From Nitrospinota bacterium (lineage in GTDB: Bacteria; UBA8248): DNA of 44,183 bases. Where the stretch lies: positions 1-44,183 of the forward strand of contig JASLZZ010000117.1 of the NCBI GenBank assembly GCA_030754595.1. The letters run 5' to 3'. Numbering within the stretch: the first letter of the stretch is position 1; each line of letters starts with the position of its first letter. Both the position numbers and the translations under genes were made by a program. The notes under the pieces were generated by a model. The model saw only the letters and a list, made by a program, of their open reading frames with translations. It ran no database searches and was not told where the DNA came from. Shown here piece by piece: positions 89 to 4,302 of the stretch.

Positions 89-873
89 ATGCCTGAAATC
101 GGTGTGGTGGCGGATGTGGACCTCGCAAGGCTGAGGGCAGCGGTTCAAAACGAATACGCTGTGGTGGCGAACCAACCCGGCAAGGGCTTTCACTTTCACA
201 CAGGGAGGCCGCTGGCGAAGCTTCTGGGGTATTCGGACGAATGGCTCGAGGGGATTCCCGAGAGCGCGGCTGAATCCCTCGCGGGTACGGGGAATCCGTT
301 TTCCCTGGGCGAAATCCGGCAGGGTGAGCGCGTGGTGGACATCGGCTGCGGCGCCGGGATGGACAGTTTTCTAGCCGCAAAGTTTGTAGGCGAATATGGC
401 CGCGTCGTCGGCGTGGACATGACGCCGACATGCTGGGCAAGGCCCGGGCAGCCGCTGAGGCGGCGAACATCGGGAGCATCGAGTTCAAGGAAGCCCTGGC
501 GGAGGAGCTTCCGGTGCCGGACGGCTGGGCCGACGTGGTGATTTCGAACGGGGTGGTGAACCTTTGCCCGGACAAGCCCCTGGTGTTCGCGGAACTCCTC
601 CGTATCCTCAAGCCGGCCGGCAGACTTCAGATTGCCGATATCCTGGTGGACAAGCCGGTGCCCGAGGAGGTGAAAAGCGAGATCGATCTATGGACCGGCT
701 GAATCGCAGGCGCTCTGCTTGAGGCAGAGCTCGAGTCGGTCGTCACCCGGCCGGGTTTTGAGGATTTCGAGATCACATGGCGGAAAGATGTTTTCGCGGG
801 GTCCCCCCAGGACTCAAGCGCCGCCGCGTTCGGGACTGTGGGGGTCAACTTCCGGGCGCGAAAGCCCGCCTGA
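89..873 (+). CDS. ArsM-like (arsenite methyltransferase family) SAM-dependent methyltransferase, probable selenoprotein (UGA 700-702); 1-nt frameshift at ~425-429, so possibly a pseudogene
   Basis: ORF 89.. has GxGNP and the SAM motif VVDIGCGAG; the frame starting at 430 continues MLGKAR..DVVISNGVVNL..LKPAGRL..LWTG-TGA-IAGAL (ArsM WxGCIAGAL) and stays open 56 more codons to TGA 871-873; restored length 261 aa. Confidence 0.8.
704..734 (+). promoter_or_regulatory. Candidate bacterial SECIS hairpin
   Basis: GCTCTGC(712-718)/GCAGAGC(724-730) perfect 7-bp stem, G-containing loop TTGAG starting 16 nt after the UGA; short lower stem TCG/CGA. Confidence 0.65.
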
Positions 874-1635
874 TCAAATTTCCTGAATTTCCTCGAGCAC
901 CCGCCGGGTGTTCGGGGCGGTGGGACTCTGCCCACCTGCGTGGCTCGCGAGGCGTGCGCGAAGGCGCTCCAGGTCCCCGGTTGTATCCACATCGCTCCAC
1001 TCAGGAAGGGTGTGAAGCCGGTGGCACGAGGATTCGAGCCTTTCCGTCTGCGCCCGGAAAACCCCGGAGCCTCCCCATTCCATTCCCGAGAAGAGACCCG
1101 GCGAGAGGCGGTTCAACCCGATGAGATAGTAGCCGCCGTCCATGGACGGCCCGAGGGCGGCGCAGGGCACACCCGGCACGGCCCGCTCCATCTCCTCCAA
1201 GGCGGCGAAGGCCTCGATCACAATCTCCGCCGGAAGATCCGGAAAATCGGTGCCTATCAACACAGCCCGCCGCGGACGGCCCGTCATGTTCCCGGCGGCG
1301 AGCCGCCTCCCCAGCGCGGCCCCCATTCGCTCGCCGAGATCGCGCCCGCTCTGGGCGCGGTGAAGAAACGGCCCCGGCAGCCAGAAGTCGAGGGGCATCG
1401 CCCCAAGAGGCAGTGCCTCGGAGGACAGTGCCCCAGGAGGGACGTTTTCGATGGCCCATTCCGCCGTGAGTCCGGCAGAGGGCCTTGCCTCGTGCACCTG
1501 AGCACCCACCTCCGCCGCATCCGCCAGAAATGCCCGGTAGAGCCGGGCAGCCCCCTCGGCGCCGAGGGCCGGGATGAGGCGCGTCTTGACCCGGCCCGGG
1601 GTAGGGGGGCGGGCGAATAGAATGAGGCTTTCCAT
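874..1635 (-). CDS. TIGR04282/DUF2064 family CofC-like (glycosyl)transferase, rSAM/selenodomain- and arsenosugar-associated
   Basis: Motifs FARPPxPGRVKTRL, QxGxDLGERM, LIGTDxPDL, LGPSxDGGYYLIG, WxDVDT; start could be 1656. Confidence 0.85.
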   Translation of the reverse strand: MESLILFARPPTPGRVKTRLIPALGAEGAARLYRAFLADAAEVGAQVHEARPSAGLTAEWAIENVPPGALSSEALPLGAMPLDFWLPGPFLHRAQSGRDLGERMGAALGRRLAAGNMTGRPRRAVLIGTDFPDLPAEIVIEAFAALEEMERAVPGVPCAALGPSMDGGYYLIGLNRLSPGLFSGMEWGGSGVFRAQTERLESSCHRLHTLPEWSDVDTTGDLERLRARLASHAGGQSPTAPNTRRVLEEIQEI

Positions 1636-1799
1636 GGGGGAATCCGCTTTATTCATCCGGATAAAAAGACCTCGAAAGCAATCCAAATAAGCAGTTCACA
1701 GGAAAAAATCATGGAGCCCGGTAGCGTCGACTGCTAGAATGCGCCGCCTGCCCTGAGGGTGGCAATTCCCTTTCAACCAATAGGACAACGGAAAAGGAT

Positions 1800-2486: not shown

Positions 2487-3857
2487 CTAGGAAGCCTCCT
2501 CGACCCGGCCCAGAAGGGCGCCCAGCTCCCTCGCCGGGACACTCTCGAGCCGCGATACGGCGTCGGCGATCTCACCCCTCAGCCCCTCGGTGGTGTGCGG
2601 CCCGCACAGCGCATCGAACTTGCCGCGCACCGACTCCCAGCTCATCGGCGAGGCCGGGAACCCCTCGTAGCCCGGTTTTTCCTTTTCGAAGACAGTACCG
2701 TCCTTCATCTCGATCCTGAGCCGCACGGGCGATTGGGCGGGATATCGCGCCGTCAGATCGTCCCCGCAGGTGATGTTCACCCGCCGGAGGAGCGCCTGAA
2801 CATCCTCGGCCCGGATGCGCTCGATCTCGTACTGCGCCGGCATCACCTCCCCGTCGATGAGCGCGGCCGCCAGAACATAAGGAAGGCTGTGGTCGGCGGT
2901 CTCCTTGTTCCGGATGTCGTGCTTGTCCCCCGCGCCGCCTCCGCCCATGATGTAAAAGGCTCGCTCGTAGGTCTCCAGCTCCACCCGCTCGATCTCGCCC
3001 GGTGAGATGTTGTGCTCGTTCTTCAGCTCGATGACGCCCTCGATGCCCGTCTGGGAGTGCACCCCCGCGTTGTATTTCTTGATGCTGATGCCGAGCACCT
3101 TTTCAAGGTTCTCGCTCTCCCAGTCGATCTCAAAGGGTCCGGTGATGGCCTCGAAGAGCCCGCGCGGGCCCTCGAAGATTTCCACCGGCCCCGTCACCCC
3201 GCGCATGGCGAGAAACACCGCGTGGATGGCGTTTAAGGCCGCGTCGGCGGTGGCGAATCCCTTCCAGTGGGAGATTTGCCCCGTCCGCGAGATGAACAGG
3301 GGGTTGTGGGAGGCCCCGCTCAGGGCGACGGCGTGCGCCGCTCGCTCCGGGCCGACCCCCAGGGCGCGCGCCGCCCCCGCCGCCACGGAGTAGGAGATGG
3401 CGAGCCCCTGATCGAAGCCGTTCTTTTCCGAGGGCGCGAGGTCGCAGAACCGGCACTGCACCTGATAGGCGAGCGCGAGGGCGGCCATGAAATCCCGTCC
3501 GGAGGCGCCGGCGTACTCCGCCGCCGCAAGCACAGCGCCCATGTTGTCGCTCGGGTGCGAGGTGCCCATCGCGCCCATGTAGCCGTCGCTGATGTCGAGA
3601 TAGCGGACGAGCGAGGTGTTGTAGAAGGCCGCCCGGTCGGGGGCGGTCGATCCCCCGCCGATGAGGGTGCAGCTCCCGTTTCCCCCGAAATCGTCGGCTT
3701 GCGCGCGTAAATAGCGGATGGGCTCGGCCCCCAGCGACCCGATGGCGCAGCCGATCGTGTCGAGGACGAGGAGCTTTACCTGATTCCGCGCGGCCTCTGA
3801 AAGATCGTCGTAGGACGCGCCCGCCGCGAAGGCGGCGAGCCGTTCGGCGGTGGTCAT
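2487..3857 (-). CDS. MmgE/PrpD family protein
   Basis: LDTIGCAIG, AAFYN..RYLD, HPSDN, ETADHSLPY motifs; start MTTAERLA preceded by GGAG. Confidence 0.9.
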   Translation of the reverse strand: MTTAERLAAFAAGASYDDLSEAARNQVKLLVLDTIGCAIGSLGAEPIRYLRAQADDFGGNGSCTLIGGGSTAPDRAAFYNTSLVRYLDISDGYMGAMGTSHPSDNMGAVLAAAEYAGASGRDFMAALALAYQVQCRFCDLAPSEKNGFDQGLAISYSVAAGAARALGVGPERAAHAVALSGASHNPLFISRTGQISHWKGFATADAALNAIHAVFLAMRGVTGPVEIFEGPRGLFEAITGPFEIDWESENLEKVLGISIKKYNAGVHSQTGIEGVIELKNEHNISPGEIERVELETYERAFYIMGGGGAGDKHDIRNKETADHSLPYVLAAALIDGEVMPAQYEIERIRAEDVQALLRRVNITCGDDLTARYPAQSPVRLRIEMKDGTVFEKEKPGYEGFPASPMSWESVRGKFDALCGPHTTEGLRGEIADAVSRLESVPARELGALLGRVEEAS

Positions 3858-3886
3858 GTGCGGTCTCCGATTTTTTTTTTGAAAAG

Positions 3887-4302
3887 CTAGGGCCGCTCGA
3901 TGGTCCACTCCTCGGCCAGCTCGCGGGTGCTTTCGCGGAAGAGGGCCGAAATCGGGCAGCGCCCGAAGTGTTGGCGCTTGAGTTCCGCGACCCGCTCGTC
4001 GGGCTCGTCCGTCACGAGGCGGATTTTCACCTCGACGTGATCGAAATTCGGAGAAATGCTGTTGTCGGCGTTCCTGGGACCCTGCGGGTCGGCAGTTCCG
4101 CGCACCTCGATGGATTGATCGATCACATTAAAATCCATCCCCTTGGCCACCTTCCCCGTAATCACCGTTCCGCCCGCTTTCAGGGGCTCGTCGGCGTAAA
4201 AGTGTGGCTCCGGGCCTTTAGCTCGATTTTGCACTCGCCGAGTTTGCTTGCGCGAACCCGCCTCTCCTGTTTGACCACCGCTGCGTCGAGGGTGTCTGCC
4301 AT
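3887..4302 (-). pseudogene. OsmC/Ohr-like protein remnant (frameshift plus internal deletion)
   Basis: AGGAGA RBS and ATG at 4302 (MADTLDAAVV..RSHTF); -1 slip in the A/T run at ~4198-4201 into YADEPLKAGGT..RCPIS; the GPxPxExLLxxLxxC segment expected after DEP..GG is absent. Confidence 0.7.

Follow-up and report, generated by a model that had tools for sequence, protein, structure and literature searches.

Our overall reading, which we hold to be probable, is that the window (the whole 44,183-nt stretch analysed here, contig JASLZZ010000117.1 of a Nitrospinota bacterium) carries a broken copy of a 261-codon gene with an ArsM fold in which an in-frame TGA at 700-702 is a selenocysteine (Sec) codon, the break being a one-base deletion at 425-426. 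The whole gene, a frameshifted allele on the + strand at 89-873, corresponds to a SAM methyltransferase of 261 residues with a single Sec. Its limits come from end-to-end alignment with in-frame orthologs of the same genus and with an in-frame allele, L118; the ortholog in genome G001, which is in frame, is 93% identical to the window's gene at the DNA level.

An earlier note on this DNA had taken 430-873 to be the gene, a span that proved too short: the true start lies at 89, and 430-873 (residues 115-261, delimited by profile matches and the alignment of relatives) holds just the C-terminal 147 of the 261 codons. The N-terminal half (89-426, residues 1-113) belongs to ORF 89-541, which runs past the lesion for 37 out-of-frame residues up to TGA 539-541. 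In a profile search the two pieces, 89-541 and 430-873, both match the same ArsM-type models, end to end. SAM-binding motif I (DIGCGAG, 338-358), placed by Pfam methyltransferase matches and alignment to ArsM structures, lies in the frame of ORF 89-541 and not in that of ATG 430, as do the GTGNP and His-Phe-His motifs.

The UGA codon and the hairpin behind it

Past TGA 700-702, the frame of ATG 430 stays open for 56 sense codons and closes at TGA 871-873; at the very next base lies the stop of the convergent ORF 874-1686 (- strand), and on both points the earlier description stands. This neighbor, which scores over the NCBIfam cut-off for TIGR04282/DUF2064 in a profile search, meets the methyltransferase gene stop to stop with no spacer and is not part of the Sec signal. 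The earlier note had also placed the UGA at the catalytic cysteine of ArsM enzymes, and the alignments bear this out: UGA 700-702 (residue 205) falls in the alignment column of CmArsM Cys224, where CrArsM and human AS3MT have their equivalent Cys. At this site 86 of 107 aligned loci carry TGA, 20 a Cys codon and one a Ser codon. Within the clade marked by the motif SNGV (87 loci, the window included and two duplicates dropped), there are 84 loci with TGA and three with Cys, and the aligned loci outside this clade are canonical-type ArsM or more distant. These clade counts come from a ranked sample: out of a capped set of 600 pattern matches, 199 relatives were confirmed and the top 80 retained. 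In that sample and among the best protein-database matches, the named relatives closest to the window's locus are Nitrospinota. Eight relatives' loci with 71-92% identity all have the TGA, followed by 56-57 more codons. Of the best 120 protein-database matches, 11 end at the UGA, and among the remaining 109, which are full length, 105 have Cys at the site and four have W, Y or R (Trp in two). The downstream tail is conserved across many phyla, and the homologs with Cys run to full length. What the alignments present is an in-frame UGA where homologs have Cys, with conserved sequence on both sides, as in a selenoprotein.

The machinery for reading such a codon was found as well. A check for selA, selB, selC and selD, proposed in the earlier note, recovered all four from the window's genome, with selA, selB, selD and tRNA-Sec (selC) each over the cut-off; SelA is encoded by a single intact ORF (490 aa), and the selD gene contains an in-frame TGA of its own. 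Across the 78 genomes behind named loci, selA was found in 67, namely 65 of the 75 with TGA and two of the three with Cys, related genomes among them not being independent; it was not found in 10 of the 75 TGA-bearing genomes, which are mostly MAGs. A passage of PMC5029168 puts Sec users at 21.5% of bacteria. The outcomes that the earlier note had set against its own reading (homologs ending at the site or carrying Trp there, an unconserved tail, a genome lacking the Sec machinery) were examined and none holds, the homologs having Cys or TGA at the site, the tail being conserved and the machinery being present. At two loci (L039:2116-3465 and L092:928-2277), a gene for a SelB-like elongation factor, recognized from the sequence starts, is found no more than about 2 kb away from the methyltransferase gene.

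The hairpin that the note had reported, with a 7-bp stem and a loop starting 16 nt after the UGA, is there as described (712-730), its stem formed by GCUCUGC (712-718) and GCAGAGC (724-730) around the loop UUGAG (719-723). RNAfold adds a closing U-G pair, which gives an 8-bp stem and a 3-nt loop, UGA, 17 nt from the UGA codon. The bSECIS model asks for a stem of 4-16 bp, a loop of 3-9 nt with a G in its first two positions, and a distance of 16-37 nt from the UGA; the window's spacing fits that model as given in passages of PMC13188914, and this hairpin, with its 8-bp stem and 3-nt loop, is conserved, compensatory pairs included. By folding energy the hairpin is not exceptional, since 46 of 200 dinucleotide shuffles of the 46-nt stretch fold equally well (z -0.71). 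When the peptide is instead re-coded synonymously 5000 times, all seven pairs arise in 0.7% of the draws, all seven as Watson-Crick pairs in 0.06%, and an equal energy in 0.26%.

Conservation of the stem follows the TGA: all seven pairs are kept in 59 of 84 TGA loci and at least six in 80 of 84, against at most four in the Cys-codon controls (n = 20). Compensatory pairs occur at three stem positions (C-G 48 loci, G-C 31; T-A 44, C-G 23; G-C 75, T-A 7), and the change from G-C to T-A is accompanied by a synonymous change and found in both subclades. The stem forces a rare codon on its Ala residue: all 39 of 39 loci use GCT there, compared to 112 of 1055 elsewhere in those genes. These counts, together with the re-coding result, uphold the SECIS claim, the stem being conserved in TGA loci and not kept in the Cys-codon controls. 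The loop departs from the usual G[G/U] pattern in the window's species, as position 720 is U in the window (G in 71 of 84 loci and U in one). Decay after the deletion was considered as the cause of this U and ruled out, since the in-frame allele L118 carries it too. Judged from alignment, conservation and covariation, TGA 700-702 is almost certainly a Sec codon, decoded with the help of the downstream hairpin; in the in-frame alleles, SelB would bind this hairpin and Sec would be inserted at residue 205.

Replaced cysteines and the candidate reaction

We turned to a model of the in-frame ortholog for the fold. The AlphaFold model of the G001 protein (pLDDT 96) has ArsM structures as its best matches (Z 27.1, rmsd 2.2 Å, 215 aligned residues), which makes it a class I SAM methyltransferase with an ArsM fold. 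According to the part of PMC6138428 consulted, As(III) methylation by CmArsM needs Cys44, Cys72, Cys174 and Cys224, of which the 174/224 pair binds As(III). In the present clade, a His-Phe-His motif (191-199, residues 35-37) takes the place of Cys44, as indicated by conservation and by a structural alignment that starts at model residue 36 and chain residue 44 (range ends only); H35 is found in 75 of 75 loci and H37 in 72 of 75, and the motif is kept in all 109 full-length database homologs. The Cys72 equivalent is Thr or Val across the clade, being Thr67 of GTGNP (284-298) in the window, and the Cys174 equivalent is Gly in 75 of 75 loci and in all of the best 120 database matches, being Gly155 (550-552) of SNGV (544-555) in the window. 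The replacement of these cysteines, which the earlier note had observed in the window, is thus a property of the clade as a whole, in which no further Cys is conserved beyond the Sec/Cys site. The stretch DGWADVVI appears invariant in the clade largely as an artefact of the retrieval pattern, and it varies among the 109 full-length database homologs.

The simplest reading of the catalog label would be a canonical arsenite methyltransferase that merely has Sec for Cys224. The selenoproteome of the Global Ocean Sampling (GOS) set does file the clade under arsenite S-adenosylmethyltransferase in the passages available (PMC2398784), some databases name the Cys homologs "arsenite methyltransferase", and the in-frame ortholog scores 231 bits against NF008823/PRK11873. 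That score is below the model's cut-off of 263, and three of the four catalytic cysteines are absent, neither the Cys174/Cys224 pair nor the N-terminal Cys44 and Cys72 being found. In a quick tree, built without the incomplete loci and without L035 or the window's own allele, a long branch sets the clade apart from 14 canonical-type ArsM controls (SH-aLRT 100), and the catalog's representative, WP_011987699.1, itself keeps GCGNP and SNCV. We consider a canonical role very unlikely. More broadly, since three ArsM cysteines are lost and sulfur carriers (rhodanese, DsrE, TusA) lie beside or fused to members, the clade quite likely does not act on As(III), as far as sequence can tell.

Better candidates for arsenite methylation are two other ArsM-like genes in the window's genome, G000:C50:22889-23245 (L031) and G000:C35:4855-5208 (L034), both of which retain SNCV and CGNP along with a Cys equivalent to Cys224. 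Further relatives were met along the way. A second ArsM-like paralog adjoins the gene at L040:4762-5331, L083:4741-5301 and L104:1918-2484 (all with TGA) and at L052:1164-2015 (the Cys form), where it has the motifs GVGNP, SNG and SAWAG-TGA-V[AS]GAL and is accompanied by genes for an ECF sigma factor and a small anti-sigma protein; having TGA in three loci and Cys in one, it is likely another selenoprotein subfamily. Neighboring ArsM-like Cys methyltransferases with SNGV at L045:1165-2514 and L115:893-2110 have a fused hydrophobic C-terminal part that by eye resembles a small membrane transporter.

The neighborhood was scanned in 300 of 306 neighbor ORFs, a heuristic choice taken as two sets of 150. 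The commonest neighbors are rhodanese domains (24 of the 300), ArsR, MFS transporters, DsrE, OsmC and metallo-beta-lactamase (MBL)/rhodanese proteins; the 25 most frequent families of each set, which reach down to families of two members, include none from an ars operon. By hand assignment from clusters, ArsR-rhodanese proteins lie near 18 of 87 loci, MBL-rhodanese near 11 and DsrE near 10, with any of the three near 27, which are spread over several phyla, and none near the other 60; these counts include related genomes that are not independent and have no control set with equal flanks. TusA is fused to 18 of the best 120 database matches. The convergent TIGR04282/DUF2064 neighbor is found in all five genomes of the genus and in none of the other loci clustered, and it belongs to a family that NCBIfam names after arsenosugar biosynthesis, which counts against a sulfur or selenium substrate. 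Farther along, the window encodes a CoxG-family protein (1800-2243, + strand) and an MmgE/PrpD-family protein (2487-3908, - strand), with no evident link to the methyltransferase.

From the neighbors (27 of 87 loci), the TusA fusions (18 of 120) and the replaced cysteines, we infer that the clade's reaction may be methylation of sulfur or selenium through a Sec-bound intermediate; we lean toward this reaction without being confident of it. With the other three ArsM cysteines given over to Gly, Thr/Val and the His-Phe-His loop, the only reactive chalcogen conserved next to the SAM site would be the Sec205 selenolate. Sulfur or selenium might pass from a carrier (rhodanese, DsrE or TusA) to the Sec, forming a selenosulfide or diselenide, and SAM would then methylate the Sec-bound S or Se, with release as methanethiol or methylselenol. 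That the His-Phe-His/SNGV/single-Sec clade is, in this full form, a Sec-dependent S/Se methyltransferase fed by rhodanese, DsrE or fused TusA and releasing methanethiol or methylselenol is a more tentative proposal. If true, it would add an unrecognized route to volatile methylated sulfur and selenium in soils and the sea.

The strongest competitor gives in-frame members an organoarsenical or some other metalloid (MAs(III), DMAs(III), Sb, Te) as their substrate, held by the single Sec with help from the His-Phe-His motif and methylated in a non-canonical reaction. The nearest solved folds are all ArsM/AS3MT, the nearest NCBIfam models are ArsM-named selenoprotein fusions, ArsR regulators are frequent neighbors, and the genus has TIGR04282 as its convergent gene; in the CmArsM scheme, moreover, DMAs(III) binds weakly to Cys224 alone (PMC6138428, in part). 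Yet the same source has MAs(III) methylation by CmArsM depending on Cys174 together with Cys224, and all members examined have Gly at the Cys174 position; the neighbor sets lack an ars-operon family among their commonest members, and the window's genome has the two Cys-type ArsM-like genes elsewhere. We regard a metalloid substrate as possible and somewhat unlikely. S/Se methylation is accordingly placed, provisionally, ahead of an organoarsenical or other metalloid, and canonical As(III) methylation comes after both.

The one-base deletion and the fate of the window's allele

A single C is missing from a short C run at 425-426 when the window is compared to all eight aligned relatives and to L118. 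In eight of eight sequencing runs, from eight studies, contigs bridge the site with no indel relative to the window; the DNA runs covering half of the stretch or more number 15, and the eight among them used here were selected by similarity to the window, one perhaps being the assembly's own source; rare variants are lost in contigs. Five RNA runs also have the stretch, at a share of 0.05-0.07, and the runs come from marine samples. Two loci emerged from a metagenome scan: L117 with the same deletion and L118 in frame, the latter 99% identical to the window (nine substitutions in 785 nt). The protein P0004 is likewise in frame, with two differences from the window in 203 aa, and a 90-aa piece is called on 19 contigs. 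An assembly error as the cause of the frameshift is ruled out by the eight runs and by L117 sharing the deletion. The broken allele is common alongside in-frame alleles of what is probably the same species.

Among the other four genomes of the genus, three have the gene in frame and the fourth has an apparent different frameshift. The locus L013 (G004) has its own frameshift, in motif I, and radical substitutions, and L011 (G002) is in frame with a Gly-to-Ser change in the SAM motif (Gly in 74 of 75) and other rare changes. A recurrent programmed frameshift site was rejected, because the other damaged loci (L013, L061, L080 and L108) have different lesions, some of which may be sequencing errors. 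In the protein cluster P0003, nine of the 15 listed members are called as 123-aa proteins from residue 82, several of them on long contigs, which suggests, from protein calls alone, a second inactivating lesion upstream in close relatives; from this pattern, the gene may be undergoing repeated loss in the group.

We looked for decay after the lesion on the window's branch and found none: pN/pS is 0.25 versus 0.17-0.21 on sister branches (Fisher p 0.57-0.65), and the 13 nonsynonymous and 17 synonymous changes on the window's branch, compared to 7 and 14 (p 0.57), are no excess of amino-acid change. Most of the window's amino-acid changes are common to in-frame alleles too. Given that there is no such excess, the lesion is probably recent.

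The window's allele is very probably inactive and yields no working enzyme, since the N-terminal product would lack the Sec half while having motif I, and translation from ATG 430 would give a product lacking motif I. That the locus yields a hidden selenoprotein, as the earlier note had it, is not supported: a real upstream frameshift parts the SAM-binding half from the Sec half, and the unbroken frame from start codon to UGA that L118 has is absent here. One might still suppose that the allele works, either because ribosomes slip by -1 at 425-427 or because translation starts anew at ATG 430 and the two pieces complement one another, considering how common the deletion is (8/8 runs; the 90-aa piece on 19 contigs) and that the downstream half keeps its frame and its SECIS and has an ATG at its start. 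Against this, inspection of the sequence revealed no slippery heptamer and no clear ribosome-binding site ahead of 430, ATG 430 encodes Met115, an internal residue that is conserved, the clade's other broken copies are damaged elsewhere, in-frame alleles exist in the same species, and the N-terminal piece would have 37 out-of-frame residues; we find a working allele very improbable. It is hardly credible that TGA 700-702 is instead a true stop, or a Trp or Cys codon, with a tail that is no Sec extension, as gene callers ending the protein there and the two homologs with Trp might suggest, when the tail is conserved across phyla, the Cys homologs are full length, the stem covaries, selA co-occurs, and the methyltransferase gene and its neighbors use TGA as an ordinary stop.

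Relation to known systems

The clade itself is not new: the GOS selenoprotein catalog of Zhang and Gladyshev (2008, PMC2398784) already contained it, and its passages give "arsenite S-adenosylmethyltransferase" eight sequences. Four of those listed belong to this clade, two per subclade (DLWTGUIAGALLEAEL and DLWTAUIAGGLPCAGW), with SNGV and the same Sec position; in the same passages the clade is lumped with canonical ArsM and its lost cysteines go unmentioned. Read as a motif match and not as an alignment, the window's gene has the same signature (DLWTx-U-IAG, SNGV and FHFHTG) and differs by its frameshift. Arsenite methyltransferase is a listed selenoprotein family in the portions of PMC13188914 and PMC9312934 consulted, and its representative, WP_011987699.1 (PMC12013277, supplement, in part), is a Sec form with the canonical GCGNP and SNCV. 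A literature search found no paper on the clade's substrate, which Haft and Tolstoy 2025 and Fomenko 2007 may discuss. The window's locus is a broken allele of a cataloged selenoprotein and is of little significance by itself.

The labels attached to the clade matter more. Databases truncate its Sec members at 204 aa and often give the clade the name "arsenite methyltransferase"; should arsenite not be its substrate, metagenomic estimates of arsenic methylation would come out too high. Since full-length Cys homologs and TusA fusions are abundant, the substrate is easy to address in vitro with no need for Sec expression.

Among NCBIfam models, the four best for the in-frame ortholog are NF041537 (ArsM_AhpD_UU), NF041536 (ArsM_DUF2284_UU) and NF047649 (MTase_UXPK_star), at 243, 224 and 212 bits (E 5e-72 to 8e-63), together with NF008823, and there is no NCBIfam model whose cut-off the stand-alone ortholog passes. 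The first three, listed in PMC13188914 (NF047649 with a UxxG motif), describe fusions with a second Sec-containing part, and they cover the N-terminal loop region. In contrast to them, the ortholog, with 261 aa and one TGA, scores far under their cut-offs of 510, 575 and 460 and is not a fused double selenoprotein. With ArsM/AS3MT enzymes (CmArsM 4FR0/6CX6, CrArsM 5EVJ, human 8XT7) it shares the fold, 28-35% identity and the Cys224 position, which is occupied by Sec; unlike them, the clade has His-Phe-His, Thr/Val and Gly as the equivalents of Cys44, Cys72 and Cys174, and stands in no evident ars-operon context.
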